NCBI GenBank assembly: GCA_963798085.1
Contig: CAWCRS010000005.1
Span: 512,001 to 576,000 of the forward strand
DNA: 64,000 nt
From: an uncultured Gemmatimonadales bacterium
GTDB taxonomy: Bacteria > Gemmatimonadota > Gemmatimonadetes > Longimicrobiales > RSA9
Direction: 5' to 3'
Below, piece after piece: positions 3,767-10,315 of the stretch. Position 1 is the stretch's first letter. Every line of letters starts with the position of its first letter. The position numbers and the translations under genes were made by a program. The notes beneath the pieces are model-generated. The model worked only from the letters and a program-made list of their open reading frames with translations, did no database searches and was not told the origin of the DNA.

Positions 3767-4486
3767 ATGCGTCGAAATACGTCTGGCAGGAACAACAGCG
3801 CTCCGGTGGTCGCGCCTGCCACGCCGATCGCGCTTGTGCTCATTGACGACAACCGGCTGCTGCGTGAAGGAATCGTGGCGATGGTCCACACGCAGCCGGA
3901 TTTCAAGGTATTGGCCGCCTCCGCCGATGTGGACGAAGCCATACAGAAGGTCAGGGAAGCGAAGCCCGACGTCGTCCTTCTGGATTTCGGGCTCGATGAC
4001 CACGACAGCCTGAGCCTGACGGCGACGGTTCACACCGAGGTTCCTACCGCCCGGGTGATCGTCATGGGCCTGCTGCCGATTCAGGAGGAGGTCGCCGACT
4101 ACGTGCGGGCTGGAGCGTCCGGCTTCATCATGAAGGACGCGACCTTCGAGGAATTCTTCTCTACAATTCGCACGGTCGCGCGCGGTGGCGAGGTTCTGCC
4201 CAGCGAGCTGACCAACTCTCTGTTCGCGCAGATCGCTCGGAACGAGGCCGGAGGCGACAGGTCCCGCGTGCTGGAGGCGGTGCGTCTGACCAACCGGGAG
4301 CGGCAGGTGGTAGCCCTTCTCGGAGAGGGCCTCAGCAACAAGGAAATTGCGAACCGCATGCACGTTGCCGTTCACACTGTCAAGAGTCACGTGCACAACG
4401 TCCTGGAAAAGTTGTCGCTGCGCAGTCGCCTCGAGGTGGCGGCCTTCACCCACGCTTCCCAGCGAGGGGACGGCAGCCGCGATTAG
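3767..4486 (+). CDS. NarL/LuxR family response regulator (REC + HTH_LuxR), orphan
   Basis: LIDDN, PDVVLLD, GASGFIMKD; LTNRERQVV..GLSNKEIA..TVKSHVHNVLEKL. Confidence 0.95.
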   Translation: MRRNTSGRNNSAPVVAPATPIALVLIDDNRLLREGIVAMVHTQPDFKVLAASADVDEAIQKVREAKPDVVLLDFGLDDHDSLSLTATVHTEVPTARVIVMGLLPIQEEVADYVRAGASGFIMKDATFEEFFSTIRTVARGGEVLPSELTNSLFAQIARNEAGGDRSRVLEAVRLTNRERQVVALLGEGLSNKEIANRMHVAVHTVKSHVHNVLEKLSLRSRLEVAAFTHASQRGDGSRD

Positions 4487-4940: not shown

Positions 4941-5531
4941 ATGAAAAACGAAATGGTGGTGGACGGTCGGCCGATGAGCCGGGGCTTCTTCCGGGGCTCG
5001 GTCTTCCTGCACCCGGAGCTGTGTTTCCAGTACCAGTTCCCGGACGGATGGAACACCTGGAACGGAGGCGATGCAGTAGTCGGACTGAATTCAGAGCAGG
5101 ATGCGATCATCAAGCTTGCCGTCACCCCGGCTGCACCGCCCGCTGCTGTACAGGCGTTCTTTGGTCAGCCCGGGATCGAGGCAGTGAACACCGCTGCCGA
5201 CAAGATCAATGGCTTGCCCGCGACGATCGGCGAGTTCGTAGCCGAAACCGGGCAGGGGACGGTACGCGGCATCGCGACCTTCATCGAATGCGGCGACGCC
5301 ACCTATCAGGTTACGGCAACTGCGCTCAGTGAAGAGTTCGCCAGATACAACTCCCTGCTTCGGAGGAGCATCGCCACCTTCGAGCCGCTGACCGATCACG
5401 CCACCCTCACCACACCCGTTCGGCGCGCCGGGACCAGGCCAAGGCGCGCAACTTCGCAGTCGAATAGTCCGTTCGAGCCCGGCCCTGATCCCATCGCAGG
5501 ATCGATTCCATGGCGAAGGCGTCGCCGATAG
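4941..5531 (+). CDS. Stand-alone C-terminal domain of an M48 metalloprotease (possibly a gene remnant)
   Basis: GFFRGSVFLHPELCFQYQFPDGW aligns with GYFLGGRFIQPTLKLEITFPAGW of 39215..40672; no HEXXH and no signal peptide. Confidence 0.65.
   Translation: MKNEMVVDGRPMSRGFFRGSVFLHPELCFQYQFPDGWNTWNGGDAVVGLNSEQDAIIKLAVTPAAPPAAVQAFFGQPGIEAVNTAADKINGLPATIGEFVAETGQGTVRGIATFIECGDATYQVTATALSEEFARYNSLLRRSIATFEPLTDHATLTTPVRRAGTRPRRATSQSNSPFEPGPDPIAGSIPWRRRRR
5463..5507 (+). promoter_or_regulatory. Island bipartite motif, copy 2
   Basis: TAGTCCGTTCGAGCCC...GATCCCATCGCAGGATCGATT; 32/45 identical to 10699..10743 without gaps. Confidence 0.65.
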
Positions 5532-5629
5532 ACTTTGAACAAGGACTTCGTCTGGCCGTTCCCGGCCAGTGTGGTGATAGAACGGGCCGGGGCGCTTGTC
5601 GCCCCGGTTCGACCCCAACGGAGGTTCAC

Positions 5630-6121
5630 ATGTCGACTCAGAAGTTGTTCGCCGTCGCGCTTTCCATTGTCACGGCCGCTGGCTGTAACCCTTTCCACCA
5701 TAGTCAGGCGGTCGAGATGACCACGGTGGATGCAACACTCAACAGCCGCTGGCACGCGAATCTTGCCTCCCCAGCTACCCTCGCCGGGGTGGTGCAGATG
5801 AACGGCTCATCATCGATGGCCCCGGATCCGATCGGCGCCAGCACTGTCATTACCATCAACGTGGCCAACGCGTCGCCCGGTGGCGTCCATCCATGGGAAG
5901 TTCGTTCGGGCCAGTGCGGGTCTGGAATGGACTACGGCGTGTTTGGATCGAATGAGGCGTACACACCGCTCGAAGTGGAGTCCGACGGACACGCGGAAGG
6001 GACGGCCCGGGTTCCGCTGCGAACGCCAACGACCGGCAGCTACTTCGTCGTCGTGCATGCGTCGGCGGCGAACCCGGAACTGGTCGTCGCATGCGGCAAT
6101 CTCGCGCCGCCGACCCGCTGA
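5630..6121 (+). CDS. Lipoprotein, Cu/Zn-SOD-like fold (degenerate metal ligands)
   Basis: GGAGG RBS; lipobox TAAGC; HPWEVRSGQC and YFVVVHAS..VVACGNL motifs. Confidence 0.7.
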   Translation: MSTQKLFAVALSIVTAAGCNPFHHSQAVEMTTVDATLNSRWHANLASPATLAGVVQMNGSSSMAPDPIGASTVITINVANASPGGVHPWEVRSGQCGSGMDYGVFGSNEAYTPLEVESDGHAEGTARVPLRTPTTGSYFVVVHASAANPELVVACGNLAPPTR

Positions 6122-6264: not shown

Positions 6265-6417
6265 ATGTTTATCGCGTTGGCCGTTGTTCTCGTGTTAGCC
6301 TGGCTCCTCGGATTCAGCGTTTTCCATTTGGCCGGAAGCATGATTCATCTCCTGCTGCTGGTCGCCGTGGTCGCCGTCGTGTGGCACTTCATTGGCGGCC
6401 GCAGGTCTGCCGTATGA
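6265..6417 (+). CDS. lmo0937/DUF5670-like 50-aa membrane protein
   Basis: Below ORF-track cutoff; AAGGA RBS; MFIALAVVLVLAWLLGFSVFHLAGSMIHLLLLVAVVAVVWHFIGGRRSAV. Confidence 0.85.
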   Translation: MFIALAVVLVLAWLLGFSVFHLAGSMIHLLLLVAVVAVVWHFIGGRRSAV

Positions 6418-6522: not shown

Positions 6523-6567
6523 GGTAGTCCTTCCGAGTTAATCCCAATTCAACCCGTTTGATCGATT
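6523..6567 (+). promoter_or_regulatory. Island bipartite motif, copy 3
   Basis: GGTAGTCCTTCCGAGTTA...CGTTTGATCGATT; 32/45 identical to 10699..10743 without gaps. Confidence 0.65.
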
Positions 6568-6645
6568 GGCTGTCAAGGCGCTGTCCGATAGCGTTGTTGT
6601 GCCGATTCAGGGATGGCGCTTGACTCTCTCTTACTGAGGAACCCC

Positions 6646-7023
6646 ATGTCGAAACGACTTTCACTATCGATGCTCATGGCTGTCACCGCACTGGGCGTGA
6701 CCGGTCCCCTGCATGCCCAGGTCAGGAGCGCCGTCAGCGGTGCGGAGCTGGACGCGGCTGTCGCTGCACGGCCGGCCGCGAGCGCAGAGGCAGTCCGGAA
6801 ATTCCTTGCCACCGACCAGGCACAGGAAGCGGCGAGCCGGCTGGGGGTAAGCGCCTCTGAGCTGTCGTCGCGAGTCGCCAGCCTGGACCAGGCGTCCCTG
6901 AACCAGATCGCCGAGCGAACCGATTCGCGTGACAGGATTCTGGCCGGCGGCGCGGACACGATCGTCATCGGCACTACCACAGCCATCATCATCGTCCTGC
7001 TGATCATTCTCCTGGTTCGGTAG
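6646..7023 (+). CDS. PA2779-like secreted protein with AGG motif and hydrophobic C-terminal tail
   Basis: GAGGA RBS; Sec signal ending PLHA; LGVSASELSSRVASLDQASLNQIA; ILAGG followed by ADTIVIGTTTAIIIVLLIILLVR. Confidence 0.75.
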   Translation: MSKRLSLSMLMAVTALGVTGPLHAQVRSAVSGAELDAAVAARPAASAEAVRKFLATDQAQEAASRLGVSASELSSRVASLDQASLNQIAERTDSRDRILAGGADTIVIGTTTAIIIVLLIILLVR

Positions 7024-7046
7024 AGGCGCCGCGGCGACGGGGACCG

Positions 7047-9125
7047 GTGCGCGTTGCCCGGCTGGTTGCGGCAGGACTCTGTTTCACGGCGGGACTGGGC
7101 TGTGCTCCAGGGCTGGCCCGGCGGGTGTCCTCGAGTCCACCCGTCGGCCAACCCGCCGTGCTCGACGTGCCGTACCTCCCGCAATCCGTCCTGCTTTGTG
7201 GTGGGGCAGCCATTGCGATGGTGGAAAGGTGGTGGGGGCGGCGAGGAGTCTACGCCCTGGATTTTGCCCGCCTCGTCCGTCCGGCCTCCGGTGGCATCCT
7301 CACGACGGACCTCGAGTCAGCCACGCGCGCTCGTGGCTGGGATACCCACGTGTTCCGTGGCACGCCCGAGCGGGTCCGGCAGAATCTCCACGACGGCGTG
7401 CCTGTCGTCGTCCTCATTGAAGTCGCGCACGATCGATACCACTACATTGTTGTGCTCGGCTGGAGCGATGGGCGCGTGGTATTTCACGACCCCGCTACTG
7501 GCCCGTTCACCTCCCTCGATGAGAATACCTTCCTTGCTCGCTGGGCACGGGCCGACCTGTGGGCGCTGGTGGTACGACCGGCGCCGGTCGCAGCGGTGAC
7601 CGCGAGCGCCGACAGCACGGCTCTGGTTGCGATCGACTCGACGCTGCCGTGTCCTCCATGGCTTGATCGGGCGCTCGACGCAGTGGCCGCCAACCGACTG
7701 GATGATGCCTCCAGTCTTCTCGACCAGGCAGGCCGGGCGTGCCCGAGCGAACCGCTCGTTCTGCGCGAGACCGCCGGCGTCCGGTTCAAGCAGGGACGTT
7801 ATGTGGAGGTCATCCGGCTGGTCTCCGAGTATCTTGCATTGGTTCCAGACGACGAGCTTGGCTGGCAGCTCCTCGCCACCGGCAAGTATCTCGCCGGTGA
7901 TCGGGACGGCGCGTTGCAGGCGTGGAACGTCATTGGCCGGCCCACTGTGGACCTCGTCCGGATCAATGGCGTGCGCGCAATCCGTTTCACGGACATCGCC
8001 GGGGCGATGTCCGCGCCACCCGGATCGCTGCTCACCCCGGCCCGGCTGGCGCTCGCTCGACGCCGGGTCTCCGATGTCCCGGCCCTCCGCCGAGCGTCCG
8101 TCGACTATCAGCCGGTTCCGGGCGGGATCGTCGAGGTCCGGGCGGTCGTCCGGGAACGGCCTACCCTGGACGGCGCCTGGCGCCTGGCTGCGACCGGAGC
8201 GATCCGCGCGTTCGCCCAGAGCGAGGTGGGCCTCGAGCTGGCCAGTCCCACGGGCGCAGGCGAGCTGTGGTCCGCCAACTGGCGCTGGAAACGCGCCCGG
8301 CCTCGCGCTTCCTTGCGACTCGACATGCCGGTGCACCCCTCGCTGCTGGGGGTGATCACCATCGAGGGCGCATGGGAGCGATTTCGTTTCGCACTCCATG
8401 ATGCGCAGGCACCGGTCGTTGAGGAGGCCCGATTTGCAACGGTCGGTTTGAGCAGCTGGGTCACCGCCAACCTGCGTCCGTCTGCAGCTCTCCGGCTCGA
8501 ACGCTGGACCGGAAACCTGAACTACCTGGCAGTGTCGCTCGGCGCCGAGCTGCGCGCTCGTGGCGACCGACTCGTCATGACCGCGAGGAGCGAGCGTGCG
8601 GTGGCACTCTCGGCTCACCCGTCGTACTCCAGCGGGAGTGCGGGCGTGGCCTGGGCCTCCTCGGCCGGTTTGAGCCACGCGTCACTGTCCGCACGCATGG
8701 GAATCGACTGGGTGGGCAAGTCTGCACCATTCGGAATGTGGCCGGTGGCCGGCGGCGATCTCGCCTGGTCCGCTCCGCTCCGCGCTCATGCACCAACCAG
8801 CAACGGACTTCTCACAGGCCAGAGCGTTGGTCGCAGGATCTTCCATGGCGGACTCGGCGCCGACCGCCCGCTCTATCGCACGGGGTTGCTGGTCATCGCG
8901 GGCGGGATGTTCGTGGATGCGGCCGACGTCGTCGCTTCAGCGGACGGCTCGCCCGATGCCCGGCTCTACGTCGACGGCGGCGCAGGACTCCGGATCGGCG
9001 TCGCCGACGGACAAACCGGTGTGCTTCGAATCGACCTGGCGAAGGGACTGGTAACGGATCGGCAGCTCGCGCTCACGCTCGGCGTCCACCGAAACTGGCC
9101 GCTATTTCAGCGCGACACTCGGTGA
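7047..9125 (+). CDS. Lipoprotein fusion: C39-like cysteine peptidase + TPR + POTRA + Omp85-like beta-barrel
   Basis: Lipobox-like AGLGC; LDVPYLPQSVLLCGGAA (Cys), HYIVVLG (His), FHDPA (Asp); TPR helices; POTRA-like VRINGVR..EVRAVVRERP; C-terminal DGGAGLRIG..LRIDLAKG. Confidence 0.75.
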   Translation: MRVARLVAAGLCFTAGLGCAPGLARRVSSSPPVGQPAVLDVPYLPQSVLLCGGAAIAMVERWWGRRGVYALDFARLVRPASGGILTTDLESATRARGWDTHVFRGTPERVRQNLHDGVPVVVLIEVAHDRYHYIVVLGWSDGRVVFHDPATGPFTSLDENTFLARWARADLWALVVRPAPVAAVTASADSTALVAIDSTLPCPPWLDRALDAVAANRLDDASSLLDQAGRACPSEPLVLRETAGVRFKQGRYVEVIRLVSEYLALVPDDELGWQLLATGKYLAGDRDGALQAWNVIGRPTVDLVRINGVRAIRFTDIAGAMSAPPGSLLTPARLALARRRVSDVPALRRASVDYQPVPGGIVEVRAVVRERPTLDGAWRLAATGAIRAFAQSEVGLELASPTGAGELWSANWRWKRARPRASLRLDMPVHPSLLGVITIEGAWERFRFALHDAQAPVVEEARFATVGLSSWVTANLRPSAALRLERWTGNLNYLAVSLGAELRARGDRLVMTARSERAVALSAHPSYSSGSAGVAWASSAGLSHASLSARMGIDWVGKSAPFGMWPVAGGDLAWSAPLRAHAPTSNGLLTGQSVGRRIFHGGLGADRPLYRTGLLVIAGGMFVDAADVVASADGSPDARLYVDGGAGLRIGVADGQTGVLRIDLAKGLVTDRQLALTLGVHRNWPLFQRDTR

Positions 9126-9168: not shown

Positions 9169-9426
9169 TCAAGCGCGGCGCCGGCCGCGAATGGCGCGCA
9201 GCAGCAGAAGGAGCACGACCGCACCAATGAACGCTACGATTATTGTGCCGGCCAGACCGCTGACAGGCATCCGGACTCCAAGCGCTCCGAAGAGCCAGCC
9301 TCCAAGGAAGGCACCGACGATTCCCACGACAATGTCGCCCAGGATGCCGTACCCGACGCCACCAACCGCAAAGCTGGCGAGCAGACCAGCGACAAGACCA
9401 ACGATGAGCAGGGTGATGATATCCAC
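9169..9426 (-). CDS. GlsB/YeaQ/YmgE family (transglycosylase-associated) membrane protein
   Basis: GGAGG RBS with GTG start; LIVGLVAGLLA..GILGDIVVGIVGAFLGGWLF..AFIGAVVLL. Confidence 0.92.
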   Translation of the reverse strand: MDIITLLIVGLVAGLLASFAVGGVGYGILGDIVVGIVGAFLGGWLFGALGVRMPVSGLAGTIIVAFIGAVVLLLLLRAIRGRRRA

Positions 9427-9562
9427 TTGAACCCTCCGGCTTCCGAGTAAGCGCTGCAAAGACCCTGTGCTTGAAACGTCCCGGGGTCACGATCTGGAGA
9501 ACGACGTGTGTCCCTGTTGACTACGCTTCATGGCAATCGCGTCCCTCACCTCGCCGTGCACA

Positions 9563-10237
9563 TCAATGAACATCGCCGGGCGAGGCGGCTGAACGGCTGG
9601 CGGCGGCGCGTGCCTCGGCGCTGGCGAAGATCGCCACTTCCACCCGCCGGTTGGCCTGACGGCCGGCTTCGGTGTCGTTCGAAGCGATGGGCTCGGTCTC
9701 ACCGAGACCGCGCGTAGCCAGGCGGCCGCCGTCTACGCCCTGCGATCTCAGGTATGTGGCCACGCTCGTGGCCCGACGATTCGACAGTCCCTGGTTGTAC
9801 GACAGCGAGCCAACCTGGTCCGTGTGACCGACGATAAGGAGATCGGAGCCCGGATACTGAGCGAGACTCCTGGCCAGCTCTCGAAGATTCGCCCCGGCTT
9901 CGGGTCGCACTGCGTCGGCATCGAAATCGAACATCAGTCCGGAGTCGAACGTCACCTGGATGCCTTCGCCGACCCGCTCTACTGTGGCTCCCTTGATATT
10001 CTGCTTCAGTTGTTTCGCCTGCTTGTCCATTTGCGAGCCGATGATGGCGCCAGCCGCTCCACCGACCGCGGCACCGATGATGACGCCCTTCGCCGTGGAA
10101 CCGGTCGCCGTGCCGATCACCCCGCCCACCACCGCACCTCCCGCCGCGCCGACAACGGCACCCTGTCCGGCCCGCGTGGCGCAGCCGGCAAGGAACAGGC
10201 ATGCAATGGAAGCCAGCTGATAATAGCGTGTACGCAT
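9563..10237 (-). CDS. OmpA family lipoprotein with glycine zipper (YiaD-like)
   Basis: Lipobox LAGC; Gly-zipper; IVGHTD..YNQGLSNRRA..NRRVE. Confidence 0.93.
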   Translation of the reverse strand: MRTRYYQLASIACLFLAGCATRAGQGAVVGAAGGAVVGGVIGTATGSTAKGVIIGAAVGGAAGAIIGSQMDKQAKQLKQNIKGATVERVGEGIQVTFDSGLMFDFDADAVRPEAGANLRELARSLAQYPGSDLLIVGHTDQVGSLSYNQGLSNRRATSVATYLRSQGVDGGRLATRGLGETEPIASNDTEAGRQANRRVEVAIFASAEARAAASRSAASPGDVH

Positions 10238-10315
10238 GGCACACTCCCACAAACCAATGGTTAGAGATCTGCGTATAGCACCCCATTACAAGCTACGCGG
10301 AAACGGAAATGACAC

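Follow-up and report, generated by a model that had tools for sequence, protein, structure and literature searches.

What is a double-glycine peptidase doing on an outer-membrane barrel that is accompanied by a single small exported protein? The question is raised by a two-gene unit in a window of 64,000 nucleotides (the whole stretch of DNA analyzed here) from an uncultured Gemmatimonadales bacterium (GenBank assembly GCA_963798085.1, contig CAWCRS010000005.1, positions 512,001 to 576,000 of the forward strand). Gene 1 encodes a small precursor with a Gly-Gly motif ahead of a hydrophobic tail, and gene 2, 23 bp downstream, encodes a fusion of a C39 peptidase domain, TPRs, one POTRA domain and an Omp85-type barrel. 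We suggest that the unit is a dedicated outer-membrane processing station for one substrate, which is the best explanation that we can offer, although we hold it with slightly less than even confidence. Gene 2 is a real and conserved Omp85 variant with a dedicated substrate that has apparently gone undescribed; no description of a C39-Omp85 fusion, or of the function of the related PA2779/PA2778 pair, was found in the literature searched, which included few subscription papers.

A precursor and a fusion protein

The genes and the domains ahead of the barrel lie at the following positions of the window.

6646-7023, + strand: gene 1, PA2779-family precursor, 125 residues (NF033919 match over cut-off)
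6646-6717, + strand: gene 1 Sec signal peptide, residues 1-24 (P21, A24 and Q25 nearly invariant)
6724-6771, + strand: first helix of the mature gene 1 product, residues 27-42, docked in the TPR groove of gene 2 by the complex prediction
6940-6951, + strand: LAGG, predicted cleavage site after Gly102 (conservation; motif lost where the protease is lost)
6952-7020, + strand: hydrophobic tail of 23 residues without a basic cluster (21-26 residues in relatives)
7047-9125, + strand: gene 2, C39-TPR-POTRA-Omp85-type barrel fusion, 692 residues, GTG start (family matches, model, fold matches)
7161-7580, + strand: C39 peptidase domain, residues 39-178 (Pfam C39_2 and C39 over cut-off; LahT fold match)
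7197-7199, 7440-7442 and 7488-7490, + strand: catalytic residues Cys51, His132 and Asp148 (conservation, ComA alignment)
7653-7928, + strand: TPR region, residues 203-294, three TPR pairs, predicted substrate receptor (Pfam, model, complex prediction)
7944-8156, + strand: single POTRA domain, residues 300-370 (hhalign, model)

Gene 1 scores 44 bits against NF033919, the NCBIfam model of the PA2779 family (cut-off 40), and adjoins a PA2778-like C39 peptidase gene, as members of that family do; its match to Pfam DUF6627 lies under the cut-off, and its clusters in the Atlas are named DUF6627 or unnamed. The signal peptide ends in P21-x-x-A24/Q25, with P21, A24 and Q25 conserved to at least 90%. 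The model of the protein, which is of low confidence (predicted local distance difference test score, pLDDT, 60.7), comprises five helices, a loop with LAGG (residues 99-102) and a tail helix (residues 105-124). In relatives, the peptide after Gly-Gly begins with a conserved I/V-V-I-S-T-T and continues as an aliphatic helix.

The AlphaFold2 model of gene 2, made from 150 diverse rows, has a mean pLDDT of 92 and a predicted TM-score of 0.89. The GTG start is backed by the aligned N-termini of relatives, and the database version of the protein (P0001) is shorter, at 635 residues, from a later start. The peptidase domain exceeds the cut-offs of PF13529 (34.2 against 24) and PF03412 (27.8 against 22) and superposes on the double-glycine protease LahT (6mpz; Z 18.6, root-mean-square deviation 2.1, 133 residues aligned) as well as on PCAT1 and ComA. 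C51, H132 and D148 line up with the DCG, HYYVV and GDP motifs of ComA (E 0.036). The triad and the oxyanion Gln (Q46) are intact: all four residues occur without exception in 103 of 103 close homologues. A set of 150 diverse rows has H132 and D148 in every row, and C51 in all 146 with a residue at that position. The POTRA domain aligns with that of the genome's own BamA-like protein (hhalign, 96%, E 2e-9).

The sequence-only reading of this DNA had proposed the two closely spaced genes, their architecture and the intact triad, and the open reading frames, the model and the alignments bear all of this out. It had also pointed to a lipobox-like Cys in gene 2. Cys19 is indeed present, in a non-canonical setting (G-L-G-C), but among homologues whose N-terminus is complete, a loose lipobox pattern occurs in only 13 of 76 close ones and 11 of 120 diverse ones. 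A conserved lipoprotein anchor was thus rejected, the pattern being confined to a minority, and most homologues look, from their N-termini, like signal-peptidase-I substrates. Two further cysteines, Cys202 and Cys232 (7650-7652 and 7740-7742), lie on either side of the first TPR helices; conserved in 142 of about 147 rows, they probably form a periplasmic disulfide.

Conservation of the pair

To survey the pairing, 80 loci were collected through gene 2 and their upstream DNA was searched for a gene 1 homologue. A partner lies directly upstream in 76 of them; the remaining four, near contig ends, have no more than 159 bases ahead of the match and gave no partner match. Gly-Gly precedes the tail in 76 of 76 partners, a count that comes from the unfiltered search and is therefore unbiased, as alignment A3 was made with a Gly-Gly filter. 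A library at 50% identity contains 549 representative relatives of gene 2 that reach E 1e-30 or better, a figure that may include partial matches; the closest relatives are mostly from Gemmatimonadota, with Acidobacteriota and Krumholzibacteriota more distant, and a search of plasmids gave no match. In the source genome each gene is single-copy, ordinary Omp85 proteins are also present, and no second client with LAGG and a tail was found. Stop-codon read-through joining the two genes was considered and rejected: they are in frame at 43 of 75 loci and out of frame at 32, including this one, all three stop codons are used and the spacer is variable.

A physical association is also predicted. The complex of the two proteins scores 0.62, whereas the best of three controls scores 0.00; the mark applied is one that 116 of 157 solved complexes attain, as do 2 of 215 mismatched pairs. 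The runs share at least 64% of contacts, with a partner pLDDT of at least 58, and the confident interface places partner residues 27-42 in the TPR groove and against POTRA loop 356-360.

The unit is related to PA2779/PA2778 (NF033919/NF033920; DUF6627), of which gene 1 is a member and with which it shares gene order. PA2779 relatives in the known pair also carry Gly-Gly or Ala-Gly ahead of a hydrophobic helix. Residues 39-292 of gene 2 match PA2778 (E 3.6e-18) at 65.9 bits, below the equivalog cut-off of 150. PA2778 is a C39-TPR lipoprotein without a barrel (as at L183 and L184), whereas gene 2 has a POTRA-barrel extension of about 400 residues and no conserved lipobox. In the literature searched, PA2779 and PA2778 are mentioned only in passing (PMC3985676, 10.1101/733030), PA2778 only as a putative candidate toxin of the type VI secretion system (10.1101/733030). 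Such a role would ill fit an exported protein that is paired with a partner.

Probable cleavage after Gly-Gly

The C39 domain very probably cleaves the gene 1 product after LAGG, judging from how motif and protease are distributed among genomes. Partner-based searches found a partner in 27 of 301 genomes of the phylum and 22 of 200 of the order, and in 28 of 251 genomes of the phylum of an Acidobacteriota genome and 4 of 201 of the phylum of a Polyangiaceae record. Five arrangements were seen: fusion, split, protease-less, barrel-less and orphan partner. The fusion always comes with xxGG (16 loci in one set and 11 in another, with genomes partly shared). Protease-less TPR-POTRA-barrel genes, neither these nor the split versions having been noticed in the sequence-only reading, occur at seven loci in six genomes (one, L203, is partly degenerate), and five of five genomes searched among the six have no C39-domain match. 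None of the seven partners at these loci keeps hydrophobic-A/V-GG, one having a bare GG, and all seven keep the tail, with T-I/V-T/S-I-S and a hydrophobic stretch. Orphan partners that keep GG have machinery elsewhere in the genome (G260, G189, G550, G389), and those without GG sit in a genome that has a protease-less barrel or in one that gave no match to any of the machinery. This co-loss of motif and domain would support cleavage at Gly-Gly.

It might instead be supposed that this C39 domain leaves Gly-Gly uncut, the motif being a hinge or the site of another enzyme, and that its own targets are other proteins of the periplasm, or that it serves as a chaperone. Double-glycine leaders carry hydrophobic residues at -4, -7 and -12, and the partners fit the leader pattern only at -4, -2 and -1: position -4 is hydrophobic in 72 of 73, -7 in 1 of 73 and -12 in 7 of 73. 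Split operons, in which the partner is followed by a free C39 gene and a TPR-POTRA-barrel gene (nine Acidobacteriota loci, and a tenth with its protease elsewhere in the genome), mostly have Ala-Gly motifs, and the complex model gives no confident contact at the active site. We nevertheless regard this idea as highly improbable. Gly-Gly is invariant where the fusion occurs, it disappeared together with the protease both from the clade that kept the barrel and from orphan clades, the GG-keeping partners without an adjacent protease have one elsewhere, and the genome offers no other client of this kind. The cleavage proposed by the sequence-only reading has therefore gained support from pairing, motif conservation and co-loss, and none from the modeled contacts of LAGG.

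The proposed processing step resembles that of the PCAT/AMS exporters (ComA, LahT, PCAT1), which have the C39 domain, its fold and its triad in common with gene 2, and in which a protease fused to a membrane machine likewise meets a Gly-Gly precursor. However, the C39 domain of PCAT/AMS is cytoplasmic and borne by inner-membrane ABC exporters, whereas that of gene 2 is predicted to be exported by Sec and sits on an outer-membrane barrel. Unlike PCAT precursors and double-glycine bacteriocins, gene 1 has its own Sec signal and, among -4, -7 and -12, conserves -4 alone, and gene 2 has no ABC domain. Membership in the Nif11/NHLP leader family found no support either, as 0 of 73 members match those Pfam models among 25 of 37 families listed.

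Another proposal of the sequence-only reading was release from a GlyGly-CTERM-like anchor, and it failed. Like gene 1, the clients of the GlyGly-CTERM/rhombosortase system are exported by Sec and have Gly-Gly ahead of a hydrophobic helix at the C-terminus, and the signal of that system is defined by the motif, a transmembrane helix and a basic cluster (PMC3237569). The barrel-fusion partners have no such cluster (0 of 73 have at least two K/R after the tail helix, with a median of one residue left), no GlyGly-CTERM family model, TIGR03501 included, is among the NCBIfam matches to E 0.1, and the best match to the rhombosortase TIGR03902 in the source genome, which is 90% complete, has 44.6 bits against a cut-off of 84. 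Gene 1 also belongs to one conserved client family, and its protease is a cysteine protease rather than a rhomboid.

An Omp85 barrel with a probably altered lateral gate

The C-terminal part of gene 2 has the following features.

8175-8219, + strand: hydrophobic helix, residues 377-391, at the position of Omp85 strand beta1 (model pLDDT 93-96, profile alignment, conserved pattern)
8223-9089, + strand: 15 barrel strands, residues 393-681 (DSSP of the model)
8778-8789, + strand: loop-6 motif LRAH (aligned to LRGY of the genome's BamA-like protein)
8910-8918, + strand: FxD motif (profile alignment)

As the sequence-only reading had predicted, this part is an Omp85-like barrel: it matches TamA (Z 27.5, root-mean-square deviation 4.5, 351 residues aligned), FhaC (Z 24.0) and BamA in fold, and Atlas features of gene 2 indicate Omp85 (0.97). 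At least one POTRA domain precedes the barrel, which has the loop-6 Arg and FxD, and R579 and D624 are invariant in 150 of 150 homologues. Sequence searches see it poorly. No Pfam or NCBIfam family matches past residue 294, and the Pfam Omp85 model matches 1 of 57 members, weakly, which may be why relatives are named C39 peptidase or hypothetical in databases. A barrel-region profile from close relatives found nothing significant among PDB sequences (best E 0.55, chance level), and a deeper profile found entries for BamA, TamA and POTRA, with E from 3e-5 to 2e-4.

The hallmark of Omp85 proteins in reviews is a barrel of 16 strands, with beta1 templating clients at the lateral gate and the barrel closed between beta1 and beta16 (PMC13067283, PMC8292188). 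The predicted model of gene 2 has 15, ten ahead of loop 6 and five behind, and a helix between the POTRA domain and the first strand, so that the barrel, on this model, is an Omp85-derived variant. We conclude from the model and from conservation that it probably lacks strand beta1 and has a hydrophobic helix in its place, a feature that the sequence-only reading had missed. A global profile alignment to the genome's own Omp85 proteins (98% probability, from a thin template of five sequences) puts the helix segment on BamA beta1, LRAH on the loop-6 motif and FxD on its counterpart. The segment, E370-E406, has 37 residues in 136 of 150 homologues, with its hydrophobic positions consecutive, and strand-type periodicity is 0.03 for residues 373-385, against 0.16-0.69 for the 15 strands. 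Helical periodicity exceeds strand periodicity at this segment in 7 of 10 barrels of the split kind and in 5 of 7 without a protease, and the reverse holds in 3 of 4 ordinary Omp85 proteins of the source genome.

Gene 2 thus has a POTRA domain with a barrel, the loop-6 Arg, FxD and an N-terminal enzyme in common with other Omp85 proteins (TamA/BamA, the PlpD patatin and Omp85-metalloprotease fusions), and differs from them in its C39-TPR N-terminus, its 15 strands plus helix and its co-encoded dedicated partner. A survey of 2014 distinguished ten Omp85 subfamilies, none with C39 or TPR in the available parts of the paper and its four supplements (PMC4104836).

A proposed processing station at the outer membrane

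We propose the following route. The gene 1 product would be exported by Sec and lose its signal peptide, to judge from the motif, and its first helix is predicted to dock in the TPR groove of gene 2. The periplasmic C39 domain would then cut after LAGG, giving a soluble body of 78 residues and a hydrophobic peptide of 23. The barrel would serve the partner itself, and its remodeled lateral gate, without beta1, would hand the tail to the outer membrane; the tail would be the conserved working part and the body a long leader. Where the protease was lost, the TPRs, the barrel and the partner were kept, and in the split operons it is the protease that stands apart as a gene of its own, so the barrel travels with the TPRs and partner rather than with the protease. 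Because it persists without the protease, it is not just a protease anchor and may serve the partner. Delivery of the tail to the outer membrane is suggested because the tail has no positive-inside residues and is conserved even uncut. A protease held on one POTRA domain and three TPRs at the outer membrane would moreover be ill placed for a site beside the inner membrane. Between the fates that the sequence-only reading had offered for the peptide, we favor insertion, as an inference, over export in the manner of type Vd secretion, for which the precedent is weak since the PlpD enzyme domain is reported to remain in the periplasm (PMC11116518). Insertion into the outer membrane through the remodeled gate is plausible, though somewhat short of probable. 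It would be tempting to go further and see an Omp85-derived insertase that no longer templates beta-barrels and is dedicated to a single-pass alpha-helical peptide, with a TPR receptor and a built-in double-glycine leader peptidase, as an outer-membrane counterpart of PCAT; this broader idea is speculative, and we consider it rather doubtful.

Several points weigh against a processing station of this kind. The protease-less barrels form a single clade, and hence one loss event, on a quick precursor tree (84 rows, with 73 fused rows thinned to every third and many forks open). Barrel-less PA2778-type pairs are common (of 80 loci, 72 have a partner and none has a barrel match within 3.5 kb), so that the core job is feasible without a dedicated barrel, and at three Acidobacteriota loci that lack a barrel (L158-L160) the tails are likewise short and devoid of basic residues. 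Six genomes (G221, G186, G104, G787, G834, G843), 87-99% complete, have a GG-less partner (L125, L126, L127, L198, L202, L208) and no protease or barrel match. The complex model has no confident contact between LAGG and the active site or between tail and barrel. Periodicity is ambiguous for residues 377-391 (strand 0.22, helix 0.29), and a membrane-crossing helix that fills the seam is suggested by topology in the model. Finally, so hydrophobic a tail would ordinarily be halted at Sec, in the inner membrane (PMC13067283).

Both the pairs without a barrel and the orphan partners favor the main alternative, in which the barrel is a mere outer-membrane anchor for the TPR receptor and, where present, the protease, replacing the lipid anchor of PA2778. 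The partner would be tail-anchored, probably in the inner membrane, and the protease would free the soluble body or cut a tether made by TPR and body between the membranes. Indeed, the TPRs are always anchored, by lipobox-type N-termini in barrel-less forms (L177, L180-L186) and by a barrel otherwise, and the lipobox is mostly absent from the fusions. The PlpD precedent, again, leaves an enzyme domain in the periplasm (PMC11116518), orphan partners survive without machinery, and the best-supported predicted contact is between body and TPR. However, an anchor does not account for the conserved helix that stands in for beta1, be the barrel fused, split or without a protease, nor for tail conservation beyond hydrophobicity, nor for the loss of basic residues: at least two K/R follow the tail helix in 50 of 63 barrel-less PA2779-type partners (median 14 residues left), where the PA2778-type C39-TPR lipoproteins go mostly with longer, basic tails. 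We judge a mere anchor to be possible but unlikely.

A third account is secretion of a two-partner, Fap-like kind, in which the protease matures the precursor and the barrel moves the body or the peptide to the surface or the medium as a signal, a bacteriocin-like peptide or a filament subunit. Fap (FapD and FapF) also combines a periplasmic C39 peptidase with an outer-membrane barrel, FapD being required for secretion through it (PMC5557850), the fold match extends to TpsB translocators such as FhaC, and a PA2779-family gene is in the top 3% of transcripts in Pseudomonas stutzeri (PMC10155442), as for an abundant product. FapF, however, is a 12-stranded trimeric barrel separate from the protease, and Fap substrates are amyloid subunits, unlike those of the present system. 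The peptide after Gly-Gly is near-uniform across phyla and almost all aliphatic, whereas bacteriocins are expected to have variable cores. There is one POTRA domain rather than two, the helical body of gene 1 has no amyloid-like match or match of the two-partner secretion type, and no immunity, modification or pilus gene recurs among the recurrent neighbors. Such secretion thus appears improbable.

If the processing station is real, its significance would lie in the gate, since a widespread subfamily with a helix at beta1 and one small client would demonstrate that this gate is open to remodeling for substrates of a different type. The route of single-pass helical peptides to the bacterial outer membrane is poorly known. 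The PA2779/PA2778 pair, present in Pseudomonas, also gains a concrete hypothesis, namely capture by TPRs and Gly-Gly cleavage.

Some other variants deserve mention. A conserved TD.LG.T..F.F extension closes the barrel-less partners (L215-L294; 58 of 63 distinct sequences); barrel-linked partners lack it, and it may be a different targeting signal. Two to five partner paralogues occur in some genomes of the Acidobacteriota phylum (G389, G447, G465, G467, G550, G496), and G389 and G550 each have several paralogues with one split set of protease and barrel, which suggests many clients per machine. At L177 (G527), the partner is followed by PA2778 in two pieces, one gene for a free C39 domain and one for a TPR lipoprotein.

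Promoter and genomic neighborhood

A possible promoter of the pair was read from the sequence.

6566-6594, + strand: TTGGCT, 17 nucleotides, TAGCGT

A consensus scan missed this candidate; by eye, a TAG(C/T)GT-like hexamer recurs about 55 nucleotides upstream of the start in several relatives. A sigma-54 promoter was rejected, as the pattern is found in 6 of 70 upstream regions (shuffle rate 0.02) and is absent at this locus; a sigma-54-like -24/-12 motif about 78 nucleotides before the partner is clear only at two Acidobacteriota loci (L075, L081).

Among 115 loci no neighboring gene is constant. A NarL-type regulator recurs at 23 of them, an OmpA/glycine-zipper lipoprotein at 17 and an M48 peptidase at 12, and small membrane proteins recur as well. 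Such neighbors suggest that the setting is the envelope or general stress, and that the peptide may have an envelope or stress role. Around the present pair lie a NarL-type regulator (3767-4486), an lmo0937/DUF5670 membrane protein (6265-6417), a transglycosylase-associated protein (9169-9459) and a YiaD-type OmpA lipoprotein (9563-10252); the regulator and the OmpA protein recur near relatives. An open reading frame of 196 residues at 4941-5531 matches a 584-residue M48 peptidase found near related loci in its C-terminal part only (38% over 187 residues) and looks like a truncated remnant without the protease domain. The exported protein encoded at 5510-6121 has no Pfam or NCBIfam match, and relatives with 57-61% identity lie near three other loci of the system.

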